From: a bacterium
GTDB lineage: Bacteria > Patescibacteriota > Minisyncoccia > Minisyncoccales > CG1-02-41-26
DNA: 64,000 nt
Direction: 5' to 3'
Assembly (NCBI GenBank): GCA_030603395.1
Contig: JAUVXX010000004.1
Location: 3,597 to 67,596, forward strand
Both the position numbers and the translations under genes were made by a program. Each line of letters starts with the position of its first letter. The stretch's first letter is position 1. The notes beneath the pieces are model-generated. The model saw only the letters and a list, made by a program, of their open reading frames with translations, was not told the DNA's origin and did no database searches. Shown here in pieces: positions 2,810 to 54,100 of the stretch.

Positions 2810-3390
2810 ACAATTTAGAAGAAAACGCAAAAGGAAAAGAGAATATTGGAACAGTCCAGGCAAAAGGAATCTTAGAAAGAGCACTTGAGAATGCGGTTTG
2901 GAAAATAGGTAGATGGGCTTCAAAAGCTGATAAGAAAGTAGGGAGAATCTACTCAAAGAAAGAAGCTCTGAGGTTATTTGGAGTACCCCAATTTACAGAA
3001 ATCAAAGGAAATTGTCTTTGTAATGAAGGGATAGAAGAGTGGTTTAAGTTGATTGCCACAACTGGTGCGGTTCAGTATAACAATGCAGGCGCTTATCTGA
3101 TTGTCGGGACCGGCTCGGGTGCGGCAGACCCAACTGATAACCAGGCCACCTTTACTTCTGGAGTGACTAAGGTAATGGAAGCTACCTATCCGCAGGTTGC
3201 GGCGGCAGCCGACCACAAATGCACCTGGAAATCCAGCTACGGTTCTGCTGAAGCCAATCAGGTTTGGGCTGAGTTTGGATTGCTGAACCACGCCACTACA
3301 GGAAAGTTAGCAAACAGGAAGGTATCAGCGCAAGGAACAAAGGCAGCTGGACAGACTTGGGAATTGACTCTTGAGATAACATTAACCTAA
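2806..3390 (+). CDS. Phage hypothetical virion protein
   Basis: 194-aa ORF, co-directional and ATGA-coupled to the upstream small ORF. Confidence 0.4.
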   Translation: MNNLEENAKGKENIGTVQAKGILERALENAVWKIGRWASKADKKVGRIYSKKEALRLFGVPQFTEIKGNCLCNEGIEEWFKLIATTGAVQYNNAGAYLIVGTGSGAADPTDNQATFTSGVTKVMEATYPQVAAAADHKCTWKSSYGSAEANQVWAEFGLLNHATTGKLANRKVSAQGTKAAGQTWELTLEITLT

Positions 3391-3513
3391 AGTTTTTGCT
3401 TTAGGTTTTTGTTTATGAAGGAATGGTTGAAAGAATTTATCCTGAGTTTTGAATAGCTTTACCGATAATAATTTATGCTATTTATCTTTTACAGAAAATA
3501 GCAAGTAGATAAT

Positions 3514-26298: not shown

Positions 26299-27546
26299 AT
26301 GTTACAATCACAACTTTTTACCGAAACAACTAAAGAGGCCCCGCGGGATGAAAAAAGTTTGAATGCCAAGTTATTAATTAGAGCTGGATTTGTCCACAAA
26401 GAAATGGCCGGAGTCTATTCTTATTTGCCTTTGGGCTTGCTGGTTTTAAGAAAGATTCAAGATATTATCAGGGAAGAGATGGAGAAGATCGGTGGTCAGG
26501 AGATTTTAATGTCAGTTTTTCAACCGAAAGATCTTTGGTTGAAGACCGATCGCTGGTCAAAGGGAATTGGAAAAGATATGTTTAAATGTAAGCTGAACGG
26601 AAGTGAAGTTGGCTTAGGTCCGACACATGAGGAGATAGTGACTCGCATTTTGAAAAGTTATCTTAGTTCTTACCGAGATTTGCCTAAGTCTGTTTTTCAA
26701 ATCCAAACCAAGTTTAGAAAAGAATTACGAGCAAAATCAGGATTACTCCGAGGCAGAGAATTTGATATGAAAGACCTTTATAGCTTCCATAGCTCTGAAG
26801 AGGATTTTGAAAAATACTATAAAATTGTTATAAAATCTTATCATAAAGTTTTAGGAAGATGTGGACTTCGAGCCATCTTAACCGAGGCCTCAGGAAAAGG
26901 ATTTACCTCAAGCACTCCTCATGAGTTTCAGGTTATTGCTCCTGCAGGAGAGGATACAATTTTCTACTGCCTCGGAGGAGATTTTTCTCAAAACAAAGAA
27001 GTTGCTAAAGTAAAAGCTGGAGACAAATGTCCAATTTGCCAAAAAACTTTAATTGAGGAAAAGTCAATTGAGGTTGGCAATATCTTCCCCCTGGGAATTA
27101 AGTATTCAGAGGCCCTGGGAGCTTACTTTACTGATAAGGATGGAAAGAAAAAACCAATTACCATGGGATGCTATGGATTGGGTCCTTCTAGGATTATGGG
27201 AGCCGCTGTTGAGATTCACCATGATTCAAAGGGAATTATCTGGCCCGGAGAGATAGCTCCTTTCCAGGTTCATTTAATTCAATTACAAGAGAATCCTGAG
27301 ATCAAGAAAAAGAGCAGGGAAATCTACGATACTTTACTTAAAACAGGGATTGAAGTATTATATGATGACAGAGATGGTAAATCGCCAGGAGAGAAGTTTG
27401 CCGATGCTGATTTAATAGGCATACCCTGGAGAATTGTGGTTAGCGAGAGAACCTTAGAGAAAGATTCGGTGGAATTAAAGAGAAGAGATAAAGAGGAAAT
27501 AAAATTAGTAAAAACGAAAGAACTGCAAACTTTTTTTAAATCTTAA
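26299..27546 (+). CDS. proS: Prolyl-tRNA synthetase, short form without the INS editing domain
   Basis: Class II motifs, 415 aa. Confidence 0.85.
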   Translation: MLQSQLFTETTKEAPRDEKSLNAKLLIRAGFVHKEMAGVYSYLPLGLLVLRKIQDIIREEMEKIGGQEILMSVFQPKDLWLKTDRWSKGIGKDMFKCKLNGSEVGLGPTHEEIVTRILKSYLSSYRDLPKSVFQIQTKFRKELRAKSGLLRGREFDMKDLYSFHSSEEDFEKYYKIVIKSYHKVLGRCGLRAILTEASGKGFTSSTPHEFQVIAPAGEDTIFYCLGGDFSQNKEVAKVKAGDKCPICQKTLIEEKSIEVGNIFPLGIKYSEALGAYFTDKDGKKKPITMGCYGLGPSRIMGAAVEIHHDSKGIIWPGEIAPFQVHLIQLQENPEIKKKSREIYDTLLKTGIEVLYDDRDGKSPGEKFADADLIGIPWRIVVSERTLEKDSVELKRRDKEEIKLVKTKELQTFFKS

Positions 27547-27574
27547 ATCATAAATCTTAAGTCATAAATCAATC

Positions 27575-28630: not shown

Positions 28631-28921
28631 ATGATTTCTAAAAAAGAAGTAGAACATGTGGCTAAGCTGGCTCGGCTTGGCTTGACCTGGAAAGAAATTG
28701 AGAAAATGCAAAAGGAATTGACTTTAATCTTAGATTATTTTGATTTACTAAAAGAGGTTGACGTTTCTCAGGTTCAACCAACCTCTCACTCAATTTTATT
28801 GGAGAACGTAGACCGAGAGGATATTGTCAAAAAAGAAAGCTTAGAGACAGTTAATAAAATTCTAGACGGGGCTCCAGCCAGAGAAAAAGGACACGTTAGG
28901 GTTAAAGGAATACTAAAGTAA
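28631..28921 (+). CDS. gatC: Glu/Asp-tRNA amidotransferase subunit C
   Basis: [10 protein letters not shown]... and position upstream of gatA. Confidence 0.85.
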
Positions 28922-28949
28922 TTCTCAATTTTTAATTATCAATTTTCAA

Positions 28950-30984: not shown

Positions 30985-31055
30985 CGCGGGGTGGAGAAGT
31001 AGTATCTTGCGAGGCCCATAACCTCGAGACGTCAGTGCAATTCTGGCCCCCGCAA
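30985..31055 (+). tRNA. Initiator-like tRNA-Met (CAU) with atypical D and T loops
   Basis: CGCGGGG...CCCCGCA-A acceptor with a C1:A72 mismatch, as in bacterial tRNA-fMet. Anticodon loop is CCCAUAA. The D-loop lacks GG and the T-loop reads TGCAATT. Confidence 0.55.
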
Positions 31056-31088
31056 CAGGAAACATTTTTCGTATAGCGAAAAATGCAC

Positions 31089-31224
31089 AGGAGGGGTCGG
31101 GAGGATTGGGTATCCTCCCGTGTAGGAAAACAGGCTTTCGCCGAAGGCGAAAACGTTAGAAACCGAGGGTGTCTAAGGAGCGGTGTTAGCGCACTCGCTC
31201 AAGGCGAGTGTCGCGTGCCGCGAC
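31089..31224 (+). ncRNA. Unclassified structured RNA motif, copy 1
   Basis: Shares five conserved blocks and two covarying helices with 39529-39640. It abuts the 5' end of the next tRNA. Confidence 0.5.
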
Positions 31225-31297
31225 GCCGGTGTAGCTCAGTGGTAGAGCAGAGTCTTCATAAGGCTAAGGTCGTTGGGTTCAAATCCCACCACCGGCA
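31225..31297 (+). tRNA. tRNA with CAU anticodon (elongator Met or Ile2)
   Basis: GCCGGTG/CACCGGC acceptor, TAGCTCAGTGGTAGAGC D-arm, TTCATAA anticodon loop and GGTTCAAATCC T-arm. Confidence 0.8.
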
Positions 31298-31300
31298 CAT

Positions 31301-31376
31301 GGTCGCGTAGTGTAGCCCGGTCAAACACATCTCCTTGTCACGGAGAAGATCACGGGTTCAAATCCCGTCGCGACCG
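31301..31376 (+). tRNA. tRNA-Asp (GUC)
   Basis: GGTCGCG/CGCGACC acceptor, CTCC-TTGTCAC-GGAG anticodon arm and GGGTTCAAATCCC T-arm. Confidence 0.85.
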
Positions 31377-31402
31377 CAAAAGTTTTCAAGCTCATTTTGG
31401 GG

Positions 31403-31431
31403 TTGACTTTTTTGTTTGGGACTGATAAAAA
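31403..31431 (+). promoter_or_regulatory. Island promoter, copy 1 (GGGGTTGACTT-N15-TAAAAAGAA)
   Basis: TTGACT, a 17-nt spacer, then TAAAAA. The architecture is nearly identical to 33393-33421. Confidence 0.5.
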
Positions 31432-31530
31432 GAAAGTTAGAACCTAAGTGAGTTCATTAAGATTTAAATAGGGAAAGTGAAGATAAAGAAAGAGAAGAAA
31501 TGATTAATATTAAATACGGAGGTGAATTAA

Positions 31531-31896
31531 ATGGGATTAGACATCGGGTTAGATAGCGAAGACAAGCAGCCAAAACGTGGACCATGTCCGTTTTTTGGCA
31601 TAGAAGAAGGATCATTTTCTTGCGAAATTAGGGTGAAAGTTTGCAATCATGATGACAATGTTTCTTCTAGGTGTACAAAGTACCGGATATTAGGGAATAG
31701 ATTAATGCATGAGGTACGGGCAAGATGTGTAGTCTGTCAGAGGGTAGAATTTGAAAATGAATGGCTCAAGCCCGAAGAAATTATCATCCCTAACAGCAAC
31801 AATCCCATACCCTTAGATATCTGGGAGAAATTTGGAGATTTACCAAATGTCTTTTGCCTAGATCCAAAATGTCGGCCAAAAAAGGAGGGGGAATGA
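31531..31896 (+). CDS. Cys-rich small protein (121 aa, 8 Cys) coupled to the radical SAM gene
   Basis: GGAGGTG Shine-Dalgarno sequence. The stop lies 1 nt before the next ATG. CVVC and CLDPKC motifs suggest metal binding. Confidence 0.45.
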   Translation: MGLDIGLDSEDKQPKRGPCPFFGIEEGSFSCEIRVKVCNHDDNVSSRCTKYRILGNRLMHEVRARCVVCQRVEFENEWLKPEEIIIPNSNNPIPLDIWEKFGDLPNVFCLDPKCRPKKEGE

Positions 31897-31897
31897 A

Positions 31898-33109
31898 ATG
31901 ACTACAAAGAAGGCGAGATCAATGTCTAAGAAGTTTTTAGGCAAAACAGTGCAGTTGTATACCACTAGTCTGTGTAAAATGAACTGTCCACATTGCAGTT
32001 CAAGATTACAGATGATACCAGACATGATACTAGCGACATTCAAGCACGTAGTGAAAGACGTAGAAGTAAATGGTGCTCGGCGCATAGAGCTGTTCGCGAA
32101 TGATCCGCTCTTGCACCCCGAAATTGAGGAGCAAGTCGAGGTGCTTAATAAAAGCGGACTTGGCTACGCGATCCTAACCGTCGGTGCCAGCCCGAGAGAT
32201 TCAAGGGATTCAAGTGTAAGGGAACGTTTCTTTCGCGTAATGAGAAAGATTAATCGAGAAAGAGGTGCTTTTGTATTTTCGGTAGATCTCACTGAGGAGA
32301 CTGCCAAAAAGATCCTGACTAAAGGAGGCACGGACGAGAATACGTCGTATGCTTTCAAGGCGAATACATTTTGGGAGTTAGCCCCTCTACTCCAGATGGA
32401 GCAGATCCCTGTGCGCATCAACGTTGTCATTAGTCGATACAATATTGATGAAGTAGTGACAATCATGTGCCGAGCAACAGAAATGGGTTTCGCCGCATCG
32501 TTTTGTTTTGTACAAAACACCGACGCGAAGTTCGATGAACTTTCGCGTAAGGGGCTTACGCCAAAGCTCGAACAGGGCTTCCGTAACTACTTGCACTCCT
32601 CTGGTCTTCTGAGCACTTCCGAAGTTGACCAGATTATTGCGGATACTCACAAGGTTGTAGCAGACAACGAACTGGAAGATAAGAAAAACACAAGCGGCAA
32701 CGTGATTGAACAAAGTCCGTTCAACGCATTCCGTGGCAACGACCGTAGCGAGGGTAGAATTTCCATCATACAACTTGCAAAGCTACGGCGTGATATCCTT
32801 GCCCTCAAAAACAAGTTGAAAGAGAAGATACTTCCGAGTGATGATTTCATTTACGAAATTGGTAATCGTGGTTTCGGATGTATCAAGCTTCTCAAACAAA
32901 ATCAGTTTCCACAAATGAAAATTGGGTCGGAAGGTCAGATGATTTTTTGCTGTGATCTACATGACCCCTGCACCAGCAGGTATTCTATCAATGAGATGGA
33001 TGAAGACAAAAGGAGGGACTCATTTCTTGAAATGATTCGAACCAACCCGTACATTTGGACCTGTCTCTATTTCAATCCGTGTGACTTCAGTGTGAACCAT
33101 GTTGTCTAA
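31898..33109 (+). CDS. Radical SAM enzyme with a C-terminal Cys cluster (possible SPASM/twitch-like auxiliary domain)
   Basis: CKMNCPHC is a CX3CX2C motif. NDPLLHPEI resembles the GGEPLL box. C-terminal cysteines include GCIKL, FCCDLHDPC and WTCLYFNPC. Confidence 0.7.
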   Translation: MTTKKARSMSKKFLGKTVQLYTTSLCKMNCPHCSSRLQMIPDMILATFKHVVKDVEVNGARRIELFANDPLLHPEIEEQVEVLNKSGLGYAILTVGASPRDSRDSSVRERFFRVMRKINRERGAFVFSVDLTEETAKKILTKGGTDENTSYAFKANTFWELAPLLQMEQIPVRINVVISRYNIDEVVTIMCRATEMGFAASFCFVQNTDAKFDELSRKGLTPKLEQGFRNYLHSSGLLSTSEVDQIIADTHKVVADNELEDKKNTSGNVIEQSPFNAFRGNDRSEGRISIIQLAKLRRDILALKNKLKEKILPSDDFIYEIGNRGFGCIKLLKQNQFPQMKIGSEGQMIFCCDLHDPCTSRYSINEMDEDKRRDSFLEMIRTNPYIWTCLYFNPCDFSVNHVV

Positions 33110-33268
33110 GACGCTGGTAGGTGATGCGGGAGAGAGAAATATTTCCGTGGAAACTCACTCGCCAATTTCACGAAGATTCGGTATATATTCAGTGATGCCC
33201 AATGGTTGCACCTCAAATATCTACTTGAAAAGACAAACAGAAATAAGAAGTAAAATGTACAGTCATGA

Positions 33269-33311
33269 CCCGCTGGAGAATCTCATATGAGATCCCAGCG
33301 GGACATTTTTA
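33269..33311 (+). terminator. Rho-independent terminator of the radical SAM unit
   Basis: CCCGCTGG...CCAGCGGG around an internal ATCTCATATGAGAT palindrome, followed by a T-run. Confidence 0.7.
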
Positions 33312-33329
33312 TTAAAATGTTTTTACTTG

Positions 33330-33393
33330 ACCCCGTTAGAAGTCCGAATCAAAGATTCGGCAGTCGCCTCAGGCGACTTACTTTTAACGGGGT
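33330..33393 (+). other. Three-way-junction-capable element overlapping the -35 of the second island promoter
   Basis: 14-bp closing helix ACCCCGTTAGAAGT / ACTTTTAACGGGGT encloses CCGAATC-AAA-GATTCGG and GTCGCC-TCA-GGCGAC. Confidence 0.5.
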
Positions 33394-33421
33394 TGACTTC
33401 CTTGTTTTAACGTGGTAAAAA
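33393..33421 (+). promoter_or_regulatory. Island promoter, copy 2
   Basis: TTGACT, a 17-nt spacer, then TAAAAA, with the same flanks as copy 1. Confidence 0.5.
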
Positions 33422-33456
33422 GAAGAATCAAACTAAAAGAGGAGGTGCTCGTTAAA

Positions 33457-34050
33457 ATGTTAATAATTCATCGTGTCATTTCTCCCGAGGAAGCAAAGAG
33501 GATAAGAAGCATATGGGAACGAATGGGGGCGGTTAAAGCAGAGAGTAAGAGAGAGGCAATCTGTATTGAAAGAGAAGGTAAGCTCCTTGTCTTTGTTGAT
33601 GAAACCAACAATGGTCAAAACTGCCTTCCCCAAGAAAAGAGAGCTAAGCTTTTTGATTTGGAGAGACTTAATAAATGGCCAGAGACTTATGAGGTGAGAT
33701 ACATTCAACCCAAAGTCACACATCTTTGTGGGGCGAGTAAGGTCTGGAATGAGCTACGGGTAGAAGCAGCTGAGGAAGCAATCAGTATTGATGCTTCACT
33801 CAGAACAGACGGACCTTACTGGGCAAGAATGGTGAAGGAAAGTTTCTTGACTGGAACAGTGCCTAAAATAATTGATAAGCATGAATCAATGGGGGACTGC
33901 AGCTGTGAGAAGGGAGAGAAAATAAGAGAGATAGAAGAACTACTTAAATCATTAGAAGAGATTGACGTCGAGTCTCACCAGATTGATAATCTCTATACTG
34001 GTTTAGAGCGGCTACTCGACCTTAAAGTGCCAGAGCTGCTGACTATCTGA
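33457..34050 (+). CDS. Hypothetical protein (197 aa)
   Basis: ATG with GAGGAGGTG upstream. The track start at 33412 (GTG) lies inside the promoter. No family was recognised. Confidence 0.4.
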   Translation: MLIIHRVISPEEAKRIRSIWERMGAVKAESKREAICIEREGKLLVFVDETNNGQNCLPQEKRAKLFDLERLNKWPETYEVRYIQPKVTHLCGASKVWNELRVEAAEEAISIDASLRTDGPYWARMVKESFLTGTVPKIIDKHESMGDCSCEKGEKIREIEELLKSLEEIDVESHQIDNLYTGLERLLDLKVPELLTI

Positions 34051-34090
34051 ACTACAGGTTGGGAAAAGTAGATTCCAAAAGAGTATCATG

Positions 34091-34127
34091 GCCTATCGCG
34101 AGAACATTCTCGCGATAGGTCCTTTTT
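34091..34127 (+). terminator. Rho-independent terminator closing the island
   Basis: CCTATCGCGAGA...TCTCGCGATAGG followed by TTTTT. Confidence 0.75.
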
Positions 34128-37224: not shown

Positions 37225-37234
37225 AAATTTCTAA

Positions 37235-39211
<1,977 letters not shown>

Positions 39212-39236: not shown

Positions 39237-39265
39237 TTGACAAGTTTAGAGAAGGGCTTTAATAT
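39237..39265 (+). promoter_or_regulatory. Promoter upstream of secE
   Basis: GGGGTTGACA, a 17-nt spacer, then TAATAT. Confidence 0.55.
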
Positions 39266-39301: not shown

Positions 39302-39496
39302 TTGATGAATTTTTTAACTAAAATTAAAACTTTCTTTAAAGAAGTTTGGATTGAAGGCAAGAAGGTTGACTGGCCAACTCGTCAGCAAACTTTCAGATAC
39401 ACCTTGATTATTATTGGGATTTCGGCGGCCGTGGCTGCCTTTTTAGGAATTTTGGACTTCGGATTTCTTAAGATTTTAAACAGAATCATCTTTTGA
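39302..39496 (+). CDS. secE: Preprotein translocase subunit SecE
   Basis: 64 aa with a single C-terminal TM, a KKVDWPT motif and position upstream of nusG. Confidence 0.7.
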   Translation: MMNFLTKIKTFFKEVWIEGKKVDWPTRQQTFRYTLIIIGISAAVAAFLGILDFGFLKILNRIIF

Positions 39497-39528: not shown

Positions 39529-39640
39529 AGGAGAGGGGTCGGGAGAACCGCAGGTTCTCCCGTGTAGGAAAAGATTAAAAACCGAGGGTTTTTAAAGAGC
39601 GGTGTTAGCGCCCCGCCACAGCGGGGGTGCGTGCCGCGAC
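39529..39640 (+). ncRNA. Unclassified structured RNA motif, copy 2 (nusG 5' leader)
   Basis: Homologous to 31089-31224 with compensatory changes in two helices. It ends 18 nt before the nusG ATG. Confidence 0.5.
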
Positions 39641-39658
39641 TTACTCCCTGGCACCATT

Positions 39659-40204
39659 ATGCCAAAGCAAAAAATACAACAAGGTAAAAATTGGTATGTT
39701 CTCCATACCTATCCCGGAGAAGAGGATGCGGTGGCTCGGAATTTAAAACAACGTATTGAAAGTTTGAGCATGGAAGATAAAATCTTCAATGTTTTGGTAC
39801 CCAAAGAAAAAAAGATTAAGATTAAAAACGGCAAAAGGAAAGTAGTTGAGGAAAAGATTTATCCGGGGTATATCTTGGTTGAGATGGTGGTTACTGACGA
39901 CTCTTGGTATGTGGTCAGGAATACCCCTCGAGTGACCGGATTTATTGGGGCAGGGACCACTCCCGTTCCCGTTTCTTCCCAAGAAATAGATATTCTTAAG
40001 AAGAGAATGGGGGTTGAAGCTCCTCAATACAAGATTGATGTTACTCCCGGAAGTTTAATCAGGATTACCGATGGTTCGTTTAAAGATTTTGAGGGAAAGG
40101 TTTCAGAGATTGATGAGGAGAGAGGAAAAATTAAAGTTTTGGTAAATATTTTTGGCAGAGATACTCCGGTGGAGGTTGACTCTCTGCAAGTCAAAAAGTT
40201 ATAA
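39659..40204 (+). CDS. nusG: Transcription termination/antitermination factor NusG
   Basis: WYVLHTYPGEE, a KOW region. The start was set at MPKQK because the track start at 39602 lies within the RNA motif. Confidence 0.9.
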   Translation: MPKQKIQQGKNWYVLHTYPGEEDAVARNLKQRIESLSMEDKIFNVLVPKEKKIKIKNGKRKVVEEKIYPGYILVEMVVTDDSWYVVRNTPRVTGFIGAGTTPVPVSSQEIDILKKRMGVEAPQYKIDVTPGSLIRITDGSFKDFEGKVSEIDEERGKIKVLVNIFGRDTPVEVDSLQVKKL

Positions 40205-40348
40205 GCGCTCGGGTAGCTTGCCTCGGGGAGCAAACGGTCATTTGGGTGTTTGACAGAATAGTTTCCTTGAACGCCAAGTACATAAAAGTTCTCATGTTCG
40301 GTCATCCCCACCCGCCCTCCATGCTCTCCTCGGCAACTACCCTCGCCC
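40205..40348 (+). other. Long-range hairpin with a C-rich tract (element X2) in the nusG-rplK spacer
   Basis: GCGCTCGGGTAGCTTGCC... (40205-40231) pairs with ...GGCAACTACCCTCGCC (40323-40347). The tract CCCCACCCGCCCTCCATGC resembles the X1 loop. Confidence 0.5.
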
Positions 40349-40367
40349 TTAATTACCTTATCTTAAT

Positions 40368-40790
40368 ATGGCTAAAAAAGTAGCAGCAACAGTAAAACTT
40401 CATATTCCGGCTGGTAAAGCGACGCCAGCCCCACCTATCGGGCCTGCTTTGGCTCAGCATGGCGTAAATATCGGGGATTTTTGTCAGAAATTTAATGAGG
40501 CCAGTAAAGGACAGGAGGGTTTTACTCTTCCGGTAGAGGTTAGCATTTACCAAGATAGAACTTTTGATTTTAAATTGAAGACCCCTTTGGCCTCAGAACT
40601 AATAAAGAAAGCGGCTGGCATTGAAAAAGGTTCTGGTGAACCCAATAAAACCAAGGTTGGTAAAATTACCAAAGCTCAGTTAAGAGAGATTGCTCAAAAA
40701 AAGATACCTGATTTAAATACTGAAAATATTGACAAAGCCATGAAAATAATAGAAGGCACCGCCAAGAATATGGGAGTTACGGTCGAGTAA
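40368..40790 (+). CDS. rplK: 50S ribosomal protein L11
   Basis: MAKKV..., [22 protein letters not shown]. Confidence 0.95.
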
Positions 40791-40805
40791 TTCACACTTT
40801 TAAAT

Positions 40806-41381
40806 ATGATACTTTCCGACAAAGACATAAAAAAATATATCAAAGAGGGAAAGATTAAAATTACACCTAAGCCCAATTTCAAAGAACAATTAGGGCCTTG
40901 CTCTCTGGATTTGCATTTGGGTAATATTTTTAAAACTTTCAAGCCCTCTCAATATCCCTATTTAGACCTCAAAAGGATGGTCAATTTCGAGAAGTTTATG
41001 GAGGAAGTGAAGATACAGGACGATGCTCCTTTTATCTTACAGCCCAAAGAGTTTGTTTTGGCCATCACCAAAGAAGAGATTGCTTTGAGTAATGATTTGA
41101 TGGCTCGACTTGATGGTAGAAGTTCCATTGGCAGATTGGGAGTGGTTGTTCATTCAACAGCAGCCCGTTTTGACCCGGGCTGGCAAGGAAAGGCAGTCAT
41201 GGAACTTGGTAATTTGGGAATTATGCCAGTCGTTTTATATTCTGGGATGCGGATTTGTGCCCTAACTTTCGAAACTCTTTCTTCTCCCTGCGAGACCCCT
41301 TACTCAAAAAAGAAAGCCCAGAAATACGCTAAACAGAAATCACCCAGAGCTAGCAGAATAAATCAAGAATTTAAAAAATAA
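40806..41381 (+). CDS. dcd: dCTP deaminase
   Basis: LDGRSSIGRLGVVVH and DPGWQG match Dcd (E. coli LDGRSSLARLGLMVH, DPGWSG). Confidence 0.9.
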   Translation: MILSDKDIKKYIKEGKIKITPKPNFKEQLGPCSLDLHLGNIFKTFKPSQYPYLDLKRMVNFEKFMEEVKIQDDAPFILQPKEFVLAITKEEIALSNDLMARLDGRSSIGRLGVVVHSTAARFDPGWQGKAVMELGNLGIMPVVLYSGMRICALTFETLSSPCETPYSKKKAQKYAKQKSPRASRINQEFKK

Positions 41382-43041: not shown

Positions 43042-43713
43042 ATGAGAAAAATTAATCCAGCAAAAATCATTGACCATACCAACATAGACCTTTCTGCAAC
43101 CGCCAGAGACATTAAAAAAACCTGCCAGGAAGCCAAGAGATATGGTTTCCGGGGAGTTTGCGTCAACCCAGAGTGGGTGAGTTTGGTGAGCCGAGAATTA
43201 AAAGGAAAGAAAATTAAGATTTGTGTTTTAATTGACCCGCCTATGGGTCTGAGTCCGCATTCCAAAAGAGTTGAGGTCGCCAAAGAAGCAAAAAAAGATG
43301 GGGCAGACGAGCTGGATGTTGTGATGAATGTTATTGACCTGAAATACGAAAGATATGACGAAATCTCAGCTGACCTAAAAGAGATTTGTCGGACTTTACC
43401 AACCAAGGTGATTATCGGCTCAGGATACCTAACCGACCAAGAAATCAGTAAAGCTTCAGAAATAGTTAAAAAAGCTGGGGCTTTTTGCGTGAAAACAGCC
43501 ACGGAAAAAGACCCCTTGGAGCACATTGAACTGAAAGAAAAAGCCAAACATCTTCAGATTATGGCTACCGCAGCTCCCGGCTTGAAGATTAAAGCTTCTG
43601 GTAAAATTAAAACTTACCAAGATGTTATCAAGGTGGTTGAAGCGGGAGCTGATATTGTAGGAAGTAGTTCTTCGGTTAAGATTATACAAGGATATAGGAG
43701 GAGAAAAACGTAA
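43042..43713 (+). CDS. deoC: Deoxyribose-phosphate aldolase
   Basis: IDHTNIDLSATARDIKKTCQEAKRYGFRGVCVNPEWV and FCVKTAT (Schiff-base Lys region). Confidence 0.85.
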   Translation: MRKINPAKIIDHTNIDLSATARDIKKTCQEAKRYGFRGVCVNPEWVSLVSRELKGKKIKICVLIDPPMGLSPHSKRVEVAKEAKKDGADELDVVMNVIDLKYERYDEISADLKEICRTLPTKVIIGSGYLTDQEISKASEIVKKAGAFCVKTATEKDPLEHIELKEKAKHLQIMATAAPGLKIKASGKIKTYQDVIKVVEAGADIVGSSSSVKIIQGYRRRKT

Positions 43714-43752
43714 ATTTCTAATTTCTAATTTCTAATTTCCAATTTCCAATTT
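43714..43752 (+). repeat. G-free heptad tandem repeat forming the whole deoC-gatB spacer
   Basis: ATTTCTA x3 and ATTTCCA x2, then ATTT, ending at the gatB ATG. Confidence 0.9.
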
Positions 43753-51070: not shown

Positions 51071-51107
51071 ATTTTAAGTTTGAAAATTGAAAATTGATAA
51101 TTGAAAA

Positions 51108-54100
51108 TTACTTTTCTACGATTTCCTCAATGTCTTCGCAGATTAGTTTTGGAGGGTCGTGCCAGTGTTCTGCCTTGCCGGTAACAAAAACAATTTTGTT
51201 TTCCTGAAACAAAGAGGGGTTTCTTTCAATGACTCCCGGGAAAACCACCACTTCCACCTTATCAGTTAAATCTTCCAGTTTCATAAAAAGCATAGGTTGG
51301 CCTTTTTTGGTTAAGATTTTTTTGATACTGGAAATTATCCCGCCTACTCTTATTTGCTGGTCAAAAATGCCATTTCTGATTTCTTTCAGAGGAAGAGTTT
51401 TCTTTTCCAAGATATTTTTAAATCTCTCCAGGGGATGAGAGGAGATGTAAAGTCCCAAAAGTTCTTTTTCCCATAAGAGATTCTGCTCAGAATCGGAGGG
51501 AGCCGTCGCCTTTAATTTGAAAGAGGGAATGATATTTGAGATTTTACCAAATAAGCTTTTTTGGCCATTGAGTTGAACTTTTTGCATCTCTCGGTTGAAA
51601 TCCAAAATATCTTCAAGGTTAGCCAATAATTTATTTCTTCCCTCAAATTTGTCAAAAACCCCTGTCTTGATTAAGCTTTCCAAAGATTTTTTGTTTAAAT
51701 CTTTGGAATTAATCCTTGAGATAAAACCAGCAAATGACTTATAGGGTCCCTTCTCTTTTCTTTCCTGGATAATTGCCTCAACCACATTATGTCCCACGTT
51801 TTTAATGGCTAAGAGCCCAAACCTTATTTTCTTTTGCTTGGGCACCACCGAAAAGTTTCGGAAGCTCTCGTTAACATCGGGCGGTAAAACCTCAATTCCC
51901 ATGCTTTTGCATTCTTCTATAAAAAAGGCAATCCTCTCAATATCGGCCTTCTCTGAAGTTAAAAGGGCAGCCATAAATTCAACTGGGAAATGGGCTTTTA
52001 AGTAAGCTGTTTGATAGGCGATCATTCCGTAAGCCACGCTGTGACTTTTATTGAACCCGTAGCTGGCGAAGGGTAAAATCCAGTCCCAAATTCTCTGAGC
52101 AATTTCTTTTTTTATTTCATTTTTTATCATACCCTGGATAAATCTCTCTCTTTGGCTGATAAGTAGACTTTCTATTTTTTTACCAACTGCTTTTCTCAAA
52201 ACATCAGCTTCAGATAAAGTGAAACCGGCCAACCTCTGAGCAATTTGCATTAATTGTTCCTGAAAAATACAAATTCCATGGGTTTTTTCTAAAATCGGTT
52301 TGAGTTTTGGGTGTAAATATTCCACTTTTTTCCTTTTGTGGGCTCTGGCAATATATTCGGGGATAAACTGTATGGGGCCTGGCCGGTAAAGGGCAACCAT
52401 AGCCACAATATCTTCAAATTCTGTTGGCTTTAATTCTTTTAGATATCTCTTCATCCCTTCGCTCTCTAATTGAAATACACCTGTACTTTTGCCTTCCTGT
52501 AAAAGTTTGTAAGTTTTTTTATCATCAAAGGGAATTTGCTCCATGTCTATTTTTTTATTTTGAACTTTATAGATTCGAGCCAGGGTATCTTCAATGATGG
52601 TTAAATTTTTTAACCCCAAAAAGTCCATTTTTAAGATTCCCAGGTCTTCAATGGAGTGCATTTCATATTGGGTGACAATAGTTTGGTCGTTTTGGGTTGG
52701 ATATTGCAAAGGAACAATGTCCGAGAGAGGTTCAGCAGAAATGACTACTCCGCAGGCGTGAGTTGAGGCATGACGGGCGACTCCCTCAAGTTTTTTTGAA
52801 AAATCAATCAGTTCTCGGGCAGTTTTGTCGGTGTCGTAGAGCTGGCGGAACTCAGCAACTTTATCCAGACAGTCCTGCAAAGTGAAACCAAAAGGAATCA
52901 TTTTGGCAATTCTATCGCAATAGTCATAACTTAATTTCGTACTCCTTCCTACATCTCTGATCACAGCACGGGCAGCCATTGTCCCAAAGGTGATAATCTG
53001 GGCCACCCTGTCTCTGCCGTATTTTTCAGCCACATAATCTATTACTTCGTCTCGTCTTCGGTCAGTAAAATCAATATCAAAATCTGGCATAGAGACGCGC
53101 TCTGGATTCAGAAAACGCTCAAATATTAATCCATATTTCATTGGATCGATATCAGTAATATTCAAAAGATAACATGCTAACGAACTGGCATCAGAGCCTC
53201 GACCCGGTCCTACGACAATCCTGCTCTGTTTTGCCCAATTGACAAAGTCCTGAACAATCAGGAAATAGGGAGCAAAACCGGTCTGGCTGATAACTGAAAG
53301 TTCATACTCTAATCTATCAATTGCCTTTTTTTCGTCTTTGATTTGTGATTTATGACTTTTTAAACCTTGGTAGCAAAGGTCTTTTAAGTATTGATTAGGA
53401 GTTTTGCCACCGGGAACCTCAAAATGGGGGAGTTTTATTTCGCCTAACTTAAAATTGAAATTACAAAGCTCGGCGATCTTTTGGGTGTTTGCTATGGCTC
53501 CCGGGACTTCTCGGAAGCTCTCTATCATTTTTTGGGGAGTGCGCATGGAAAAATCATCAGCTTTCATGGTTAGTCTTTCGGGGTCGTCTTCTTTGGCTCC
53601 GGTGTTTATTAACATCAGAATATCTTGGGCCTTGGCATCCTCCGGCTTCAAGTAGTGGACATCATTGGTGGCGACCAGCGGGATATTCAACTCCTTGGAA
53701 AACCCCATTAAAACTTGATTTACTTTCTTTTGCTCTCGGAGATTGGGGTGGTCTTGAATTTCCAGATAAAAATTGTCTTTGCCGAAAATCTCTTGATATT
53801 TTGCGGCAACCTTTTGGGCTTCCTCAATTTTACCCCTCATGATTAATTGAGGAATTTTCCCCTGCAAACAACCGGACAATCCAATAAGTCCCGAAGAATA
53901 TTCGGCCAAAAGTTCTTCATCAATTCTTGGTTTGTAATAAAAACCCTCCAGATGGGCTTGAGTGGAAAGTTTGACTAAATTCTTATAGCCCTTCTCATCC
54001 TTTACCAAAAGAACCAGATGATATCTTTTATCATCTATGTTCGGTCTCTTCTGCGTCATGCTTTCTTGAGCCAGGTAAACTTCTGCTCCAAGAATGGGCT

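Follow-up and report, generated by a model that had tools for sequence, protein, structure and literature searches.

A portable structured RNA element that abuts start codons and tRNAs in Parcubacteria-type genomes

A 64-kb stretch of a Patescibacteriota genome (contig JAUVXX010000004.1, assembly GCA_030603395.1), referred to here as the window, carries two copies of an RNA element that, judged from sequence and predicted structure, belong to one structured RNA family absent from Rfam. The family is widespread and strongly structured, and it is larger than the pair of copies from which it was originally predicted: pattern scans and a covariance model identify at least 55 distinct copies among genomes and metagenomes of the Parcubacteria/Pacebacteria type. 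Parcubacteria are very small bacteria that have not been brought into culture. Comparison of the copies shows the common form, represented by copy 2, as a portable 5' leader cassette, consisting of a predicted junction domain followed by a conserved tail. Copy 1 is, by the same comparison, a rarer, tail-less form that stands alone inside a tRNA operon.

The original prediction described five sequence blocks common to positions 31089-31224 and 39529-39640 of the window, two helices that change in sequence while keeping their pairing, and an additional hairpin in copy 1. All five blocks are present where they were placed, the two helices (P2 and the distal part of P4) show compensatory changes between the copies, and the extra hairpin corresponds to P2a. 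The end points given for copy 2 required revision, since this copy is longer than was thought and extends from about 39528 to the nusG ATG at 39659. The flanks had been described as not duplicated, and they are indeed unrelated; with only 78% identity between the copies, and with the differences concentrated at compensating helix positions, a recent segmental duplication was rejected. Both copies fold better than shuffled sequence (z = -3.65 and -3.43). The 15-mer GAGCGGTGTTAGCGC and the 14-mer CCCGTGTAGGAAAA occur in the window only at copies 1 and 2, even when 2-3 mismatches are allowed, and covariance model R1, run with filters off, found no third copy in the 64 kb. The parts of the two copies are as follows.

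31089..31224, + strand: copy 1, tail-less stand-alone form (model score, 91.6 bits)
31096-31098 with 31222-31224, + strand: copy 1 P1
31099-31106 with 31112-31119, + strand: copy 1 P2
From 31120, + strand: copy 1 joining strand GUGUAGGAAAA
31136-31152, + strand: copy 1 P2a
About 31156-31176, + strand: copy 1 P3
31180-31221, + strand: copy 1 P4
39528..39640, + strand: copy 2 junction domain, leader form (model score, 123.2 bits)
Starting at about 39528, + strand: copy 2 purine-rich 5' strand AGGAGAGGGGUCG, part of a closing helix
39540-39549 with 39553-39562, + strand: copy 2 P2, followed by the joining strand GUGUAGGAAAAGA
39575-39583 with 39587-39595, + strand: copy 2 P3
39599-39637, + strand: copy 2 P4; the 3' strand of P1 ends at 39640
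39641..39658, + strand: copy 2 spacer and conserved tail UUACUCCCUGGCACCAUU, 18 nt, running to the nusG ATG

A gapped pattern derived from three of the blocks served as the first search. It gave five loci among species-representative genomes, all of them in Patescibacteria or in metagenome-assembled genomes labeled "Saccharibacteria," and 56 loci in metagenomes, of which 52 were true; L015, L039, L054, and L060 were discarded as chance matches to the pattern. The covariance-model search that had been proposed as a check returned homologues far beyond chance expectation, with 53 distinct copies scoring 55-161 bits and two further copies in locus L067. Eight copies were found by the model alone, not having been selected by the pattern; they have either a differing P4 ("type B," GAGCGA-GCCC...GGGC-GAGCGA) or a base change at the tip of P3, and all of them keep UAGGAAAA and AAACCG(A/U)GGGU. 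A search of the window with Rfam 15 at gathering thresholds identified tRNAs only, and when both copies were searched at E values up to 10, the best non-tRNA matches scored 10-19 bits against thresholds of 34-69. Nothing was found on the motif in L001-L005 either, and the initial failure to match the element to any known RNA family was thus borne out. A prior description was not found in the literature searched. Viral contigs gave 0 matches, and an origin from phage was rejected on this basis.

Covariation shows a structured RNA, modeled as a four-way junction of helices P1 to P4, as the two window copies had suggested. Helices P0, P1, P2, P3, and P4 are supported by A4, a MAFFT alignment of 40 distinct copies, in which standard pairs occupy 92.5% of pair cells, compared with 39-53% when the partner columns are slid; both partners change in 16 pairs, and the observed values are matched in 0 of 500 shuffles. 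The statistics are similar on the 53-sequence set, and RNAalifold recovered P2, P3, and P4 independently. Most of the compensatory changes fall in P2, outer P3, and distal P4. P1 (GUC/GAC) is the weakest helix because it never covaries and is broken in three copies. Of the 40 copies, 39 retain a U.G pair in P4; such a pair is possible only on the + strand, which is therefore the strand that folds. About 45 nearly invariant unpaired nucleotides surround the junction, including the unpaired strand UAGGAAAA, and the P3 tip AAACCGAGGGU is nearly invariant as well. P2a is an optional hairpin, and P2 and distal P4 tolerate insertions.

Most copies also have a small hairpin, P0, located 5' of the junction domain, with the consensus CCCAY AUCGGAG RUGGG and compensating variants CCCAC/GUGGG, CCUCU/AGAGG, and CCCUUU/AAAGGG. 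Copy 2 belongs to a subgroup in which the purine strand on the 5' side, GGAGAG, pairs instead with CUCUCU or CUCCCU of the spacer, resulting in a long closing helix with about 7 nt left free before the AUG. In copy 2 itself the spacer ACUCCCUGG pairs back to the 5' purine strand, and the final 7 nt (CACCAUU) are single-stranded and end at the start codon. In most leader-type copies (for example, L023, L041, and L059), about 8 nt immediately 5' of P0 are conserved (AAUAACAU, then CCC); this flank loosely resembles the end of the tail (UACCACU, then AUG) and may represent the element's own 5' end.

Several further pairings were considered and rejected. Pairing of the tail with the core, the P0 loop, the 5' flank, or the P4 internal loop gave no mutual information signal, and the fact that type-B P4 copies lacking GUUAG still keep the spacer sequence also counts against pairing with the internal loop. 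An acceptor-like helix between AAUAAC in the 5' flank and GGUAUU was, by inspection, inconsistent among copies, and a switch-type alternative pairing of the 5' purine strand with the 3' strand of P2 was not above controls. Complementarity of the tail to tRNA D-loops (AGUGGUA) was dismissed as implausible on steric grounds, and this sequence does not occur in the D-loops of the downstream tRNAs.

The leader-type set comprises 47 copies. Their tail is a G-poor, single-stranded segment of 17-19 nt with the consensus CUNACUNNGUAnUACCAYU, in which U134 is present in 47 of 47 copies, A138 and A141 in 46, and U143 in 45; the distance from P1 to the AUG is constant at 17-19 nt. In 35 of the 47, an ATG follows the tail directly, with 0 nt between. 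In four others the tail is followed by a tRNA (tRNA-Tyr in L011 and L012, tRNA-Glu in L036 and L061), and in all four the first base of the tRNA, as called by ARAGORN, lies immediately after the tail; two copies, L051a among them, have no open reading frame (ORF) after the tail. Conservation extends to position -1, the +1 nucleotide is always a purine, and every leader-type copy with a downstream gene or tRNA is oriented in the same direction as that gene or tRNA. The original prediction pictured a small RNA of about 135 nt linked to tRNAs, and as a general picture this did not hold, the family being mainly a cis-acting 5' leader. The adjacency of copy 1 to a tRNA stood and proved to be one case of a general rule that had been missed: the element stops immediately before +1 of the feature that comes next.

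The downstream genes form a broad housekeeping set, enriched for the first genes of ribosomal-protein operons. Thirteen ribosomal-protein genes are represented (S12, S13, S11, S4, S18, S20, L10, L14, L16, L20, L27, L32, and L33), with S20 occurring four times and L14 three times, together with genes for NusG, MreB, ClpB, Hsp20, HisRS, an Asp/Lys-type synthetase, Pol III delta, PCMT, NUDIX, a nuclease, and others. S20, L14, S12, S13, tRNA-Tyr, and tRNA-Glu carry the element in different genomes, and operon-internal sites, S17/L14 and S3/L16 among them, also occur. Flanking sequences, read by eye, contain TTGACA-17-TAnnnT sites 10-70 nt upstream of the element at several loci; given these canonical sigma-70-type sites, the element is probably transcribed together with its downstream gene. 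At copy 2, a consensus match lies before secE, and secE, the leader, and nusG may therefore be transcribed together as one unit.

39237-39265: sigma-70-like site before secE, TTGACA-17-TAATAT (consensus match)
39302..39496, + strand: secE, the gene upstream of copy 2
39659..40204, + strand: nusG, led by copy 2 (Pfam NusG and KOW domains)

The presence of the element at a given site differs between closely related genomes. Locus L067 encodes a NusG protein 99% identical to that of the window, and the coding DNA is 95-97% identical, yet the two differ at three consecutive intergenic sites.

secE/nusG site: window, cassette (copy 2); L067, no cassette, spacer ACT
nusG/rplK site: window, unrelated 154-nt spacer; L067, cassette
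rplK/dcd site: window, 18-nt spacer; L067, cassette

At the filled sites the cassette ends at the ATG and replaces the entire spacer, and neither a target-site duplication nor inverted termini are visible when filled and empty sites of the window and L067 are compared. Relatives with NusG proteins 81-88% identical have no copy within 20 kb. Conversely, the copies at L041 (before L14) and L051a are 96% identical at unrelated loci, and the closest relatives of a copy mostly precede different genes. Reduced versions also occur. In L075, a relative of L005, the copy found in L005 is missing and an 80-nt "mini" version precedes serS (L075:12600-12682); it keeps the 5' end, the spacer, the tail, and a minimal P4 (GCCC-GAAA-GGGC between two GAGCGA) and lacks P2, the joining strand, and P3. 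In L008 (about 520-590), the structured domain is missing in front of S11, where (CUAA)5 and the tail GTATTACCACT alone lead up to the ATG; in L032, S11 has a complete element. From the turnover of sites, the near-identical copies elsewhere, and these derivatives, we conclude that the element duplicates, moves, and decays quickly. The two copies on which the original prediction was based are real, but this portability between near-identical genomes had been missed. The 154-nt nusG/rplK spacer of the window (40211-40364) has a C-rich 3' half and no relation to the motif; it may be a leader of a different kind.

Six copies are tail-less: copy 1 of the window, L006, L038, L031b, L001, and L029. 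They lack the conserved loop of P0 as well as the tail, carry P2a and a more G-C-rich P3, and are closed by other helices. A 10-bp hairpin precedes copy 1, and other stand-alone copies have a hairpin of differing sequence at the matching 5' position. Copy 1 is located between an initiator tRNA and an elongator tRNA-Met; as had been noted, the upstream tRNA is of the initiator type, and the last base of the element, 31224, is directly followed by the +1 of tRNA-Met. RNase P cleavage at 31224/31225 would, from the position of this tRNA, define the 3' end of copy 1. The corresponding interval in relatives consists of 13-67 nt of unrelated spacer, or in one case of an unrelated 229-nt spacer.

30985..31056, + strand: initiator-type tRNA-Met (C1:A72), upstream of copy 1
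31063..31085, + strand: 5' hairpin before copy 1, 10 bp, CAUUUUUCG UAUAG CGAAAAAUG
31225..31298, + strand: tRNA-Met (CAU), beginning right after the end of copy 1 (ARAGORN, Rfam)
31301..31377, + strand: tRNA-Asp (GUC), the last gene of the tRNA cluster (ARAGORN, Rfam)

In L029 (about 390-600, - strand) and L001 (about 3270-3500, - strand), the stand-alone form lies inside a larger RNA, about 230 nt by eye, closed by an inverted repeat of a sequence resembling a tRNA 3' end. The L029 form has its own TGGTATAAT box and a U-tract and lies directly downstream of tRNA-Gln. Identity of the stand-alone form with RNase P RNA, transfer-messenger RNA (tmRNA), 6S RNA, or signal recognition particle RNA was rejected, as there was no Rfam match and a comparison of conserved regions by eye failed. 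The initiator tRNA beside copy 1 is unusual in having the D-loop AGUAGUA, without the usual GG, and the T-loop UGCAAUU instead of UUCRANY; both features are kept in relatives (L063:2803-2874, L064:3628-3700, L068:1641-1712, and L071:4027-4098). Three ORFs with strong Shine-Dalgarno (SD) sites, one of them radical-SAM-like, occupy about 31400-34100, between tRNA-Asp and pheS. This stretch is missing at that place in L063 and L071 and is probably an acquired island, situated right after the cluster of copy 1 and tRNAs.

We tentatively propose that the cassette fixes where the downstream RNA begins, through cleavage at the junction of tail and +1. Central to this possible reading is the exact fit of the tail's end to +1 in mRNAs and tRNAs alike. 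The transcript would be cut at this junction by the RNA itself or by an RNase that recognizes it; the products would be a leaderless mRNA or a tRNA with a mature 5' end, in a lineage that rarely uses SD sites, and the cassette would spread among intergenic sites by duplication. RNase P trims any leader from a tRNA, so that zero spacing before a tRNA is not explained by a passive leader. A leftover leader of 1-2 nt makes a poor RNase P substrate, and a leaderless mRNA requires a 5'-terminal AUG; if the transcript is cut, exact abutment would therefore be selected. We rank cleavage first because it would explain the abutment of both kinds of RNA. Placed immediately before start codons and tRNAs, the cassette may be a stand-in for ribosome-binding sites, of which these bacteria make little use. 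A bolder version makes the element a mobile self-processing RNA, either a new ribozyme class or a guide for a host RNase, that cuts at its own 3' edge, produces leaderless mRNAs and mature tRNA 5' ends where SD pairing has been lost, and spreads by attachment or insertion at the 5' ends of abundant RNAs; taken as a whole, we consider this rather unlikely.

A number of observations weigh against cleavage. No known self-cleaving ribozyme was matched in Rfam searches of the two copies and L001-L005, and ribozymes are not known to cut at their 3' boundary unless they base-pair with sequence beyond it. The tail columns covary with no other column by mutual information, and hence there is no sign that the tail docks into the core. 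The mini version in L075 and the tail-only version in L008 keep a perfect tail at the ATG without the core, which a core-dependent ribozyme does not explain; they would fit a host RNase that reads the tail better than they would a ribozyme. Abutment itself has exceptions, as the start codon lies at +1 to +9 after the tail in 5 of the 47 leader-type copies, and in one (L018, gene L10) a probable UUG start shares 2 nt with the tail; in copy 1 the tail is missing altogether. Part of the invariance of the three blocks, moreover, is imposed by the search patterns.

The same position could be explained with the RNA left uncut, if the folded domain binds the 30S subunit or the ribosome, the constant length of the tail bringing the adjacent AUG into the P site. 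The cassette would then be an SD-independent leader for highly expressed genes where SD/anti-SD pairing is missing, either of a standby type or resembling an internal ribosome entry site (IRES), which we regard as conceivable, if doubtful. Structural IRESs also show sharp start-codon spacing, and here the spacing to the AUG is sharply peaked at 0 nt, the distance from P1 to the AUG is constant at 17-19 nt, and even the tail-only version adjoins an ATG. Ribosomal-protein and other highly expressed genes are enriched downstream, the genome is SD poor (any SD core is found upstream of only 10 of the 59 ORFs in the window), and loss of the anti-SD has been reported in Parcubacteria that lack uL1 (PMC9297842). 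Four leader-type copies with intact tails adjoin tRNAs, however, where translation is irrelevant and cannot account for them; L051a has no downstream gene, and stand-alone forms exist. The exact abutment of mRNAs and tRNAs, the conservation up to -1, the purine at +1, and the existence of a tail-only version are also features expected if the 19-bp tail were a DNA promoter firing at +1, giving leaderless mRNAs and leaderless tRNAs, with the structured RNA belonging to the upstream transcript; the length of the tail and its CACTAT end bear what we take to be a resemblance to phage-type promoters. This we consider very improbable, since a -35 element is absent, the hexamer most like a -10 box (TAnTAC) is without the final T and only 4 nt away from +1, no terminator separates the domain from the tail, canonical TTGACA/TATAAT sites are used elsewhere in these organisms, and a single-subunit RNA polymerase is not known from them.

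The nearly invariant unpaired nucleotides, about 45 at a multihelix junction, might instead form a putative regulatory aptamer, either a riboswitch (for example, for a nucleotide alarmone) or an operator for an RNA-binding protein, that co-regulates the translation apparatus, the stand-alone copies then serving as decoys. With its ribosomal proteins, tRNAs, NusG, and aminoacyl-tRNA synthetases, the gene set looks like a growth-rate regulon, and in most copies the 5' purine strand could pair alternatively with the 3' strand of P2. That alternative pairing is no better than controls, however, and there is neither a terminator nor an obvious sequestering helix; ClpB, Hsp20, NUDIX, and nucleases are also in the set, the mini version keeps its position without the supposed aptamer, and sites turn over between genomes that are 95-97% identical, unlike those of known riboswitches or ribosomal-protein operators. 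An aptamer thus appears quite unlikely. This turnover is what would be expected of a selfish interspersed repeat, whether similar to a miniature inverted-repeat transposable element (MITE) or a retro-element such as a mobile ribozyme, whose RNA fold would serve its own spread and whose position at gene starts would follow from its insertion mechanism or from tolerance by the host and not from a role in the host. Such a repeat would also account for the patchy occurrence among relatives, the near-identical copies at unrelated loci (one of them without a downstream gene), and the internal-deletion derivatives that retain both ends. It is no more probable than the aptamer in our estimation: the flanks contain no terminal inverted repeats, target-site duplications, transposase, or reverse transcriptase, and filled sites replace the whole spacer rather than showing a simple insertion. 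The orientation of leader-type copies is always that of the downstream gene or tRNA, S20, L14, S12, S13, tRNA-Tyr, and tRNA-Glu are occupied in different genomes, and persistence in streamlined genomes argues for some benefit.

Several known systems come close to the element. Like the ribosomal-protein leaders (L10, L20, S15, and L1), it is a cis-acting, sense-strand 5' RNA with covariation that precedes operon heads (S12, S13, L14, L10, L20, and others). It differs in that one structure precedes more than 25 unrelated genes as well as tRNAs, ends at the start codon and not over an SD site, and turns over between near-identical genomes. An autoregulatory leader that mimics rRNA was rejected because the same element stands before 13 different ribosomal-protein genes and many others, and mimicry of the L1 stalk, the 530 loop, or 5S loop E found no support in a search of the E. 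coli rrn operon, where the model gave no match. Words shared with E. coli 23S rRNA, including several 9-mers, are scattered at unrelated positions, and those from the L1 stalk therefore carry no weight. Of the features of a riboswitch, an aptamer-like conserved junction is present; there is no terminator, and the candidate alternative helix is not above controls.

With the MIRU, ERIC, BOX, and Correia repeats, the element shares a multicopy, intergenic distribution within operons, polymorphic presence, and deletion derivatives, and with MIRU a fixed orientation relative to genes. Unlike these repeats, it is a predicted four-way junction with about 45 invariant unpaired bases rather than a plain palindrome, it lacks inverted repeats at its termini, its 3' end coincides exactly with the downstream +1, and a stand-alone form with its own promoter and U-tract exists (L029). 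Its copy number, polymorphism between close relatives, and internal deletions are those of a MITE or a repeat derived from an insertion sequence; by its termini this identity was rejected, there being no inverted ends and no duplication, and the whole spacer being replaced. The hepatitis delta virus (HDV)-like ribozymes of R2 elements and the lariat-capping ribozyme are likewise compact conserved domains just 5' of an ORF, are associated with mobility, and could set an RNA 5' end, but the element has no sequence or structure match to ribozyme families, and its presumed cut lies 17-19 nt 3' of the domain. Among hammerhead, twister, twister-sister, pistol, hatchet, HDV, and hairpin ribozymes, the sole match was to twister-sister, which scored 15.8 bits on the opposite strand, below its threshold of 34. 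Group I introns end in G, and group II domain 5 is 34 nt long; the element lies outside genes, its last base is U, the length of its P4 varies, and no Rfam intron was matched, so that both intron types were rejected.

Folded RNA at a fixed distance from the start codon, with SD-independent placement possible, is also found in structural IRESs, such as the cricket paralysis virus intergenic region (CrPV IGR) and the hepatitis C virus IRES, and in split ribosome-binding sites, such as that of T4 gene 38; the element is bacterial and occurs also before tRNAs and without a gene. tRNA punctuation in mitochondrial polycistrons and tRNA-like structures offer a further parallel, in that the element lies between the genes of polycistrons and beside tRNAs, has a boundary that is the 5' end of the next RNA, and contains ACCA in its tail. 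tRNA models do not match it, however, and an acceptor-like helix formed with the tail is unsupported; ARAGORN and RF00005 call only the flanking tRNAs, and a tRNA, tRNA-like, or tmRNA identity was rejected.

NusG homologues are annotated as Pacebacteria, Parcubacteria, or Gribaldobacteria, and rplK (within 40368-41381 of the window) is followed by dcd or other genes, never by rplA, in the window and in all relatives (L063-L087). A subgroup of Parcubacteria has been reported to lack both uL1 and the anti-SD motif (PMC9297842), and the absence of rplA from these gene neighborhoods fits assignment of the window and its relatives to uL1-less Parcubacteria. No 16S gene was present in any motif-bearing locus, and loci adjacent to rRNA genes gave 23S and 5S only. 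A normal tmRNA is encoded at L028:543-904. Tandem heptamer repeats (AATTTCT, AATTTTC, and TTAAATC; 3-6 copies) end at the start codons of unrelated genes, including gatA and gatB, at 27536-27570, 28920-28949, 37226-37243, 43713-43752, and 51080-51109 of the window; in an SD-poor genome they look like a second, unstructured kind of leader. Some relatives have a GyrB intein (L068:6008-9676 and L073:6003-9611), and in L075 (5564-6286) a LAGLIDADG ORF and then a long gap lie between the 23S and 5S genes, which suggests an intron or insertion.

Patescibacteria, or the candidate phyla radiation (CPR), make up a large share of bacterial diversity, and almost nothing is known of their gene expression. 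A conserved, portable RNA situated exactly where ribosomal-protein mRNAs and tRNAs begin offers a testable candidate for a role in translation start or in the maturation of 5' ends. Self-cleavage would make it a new class of ribozyme, unusual in its geometry, and a natural "insulator" part for synthetic biology; if it docks on the ribosome, it would be a bacterial IRES. Even as a mere repeat, it would be a marker that improves the annotation of gene starts and operons in CPR genomes, and covariance model R1 can seed an Rfam family.

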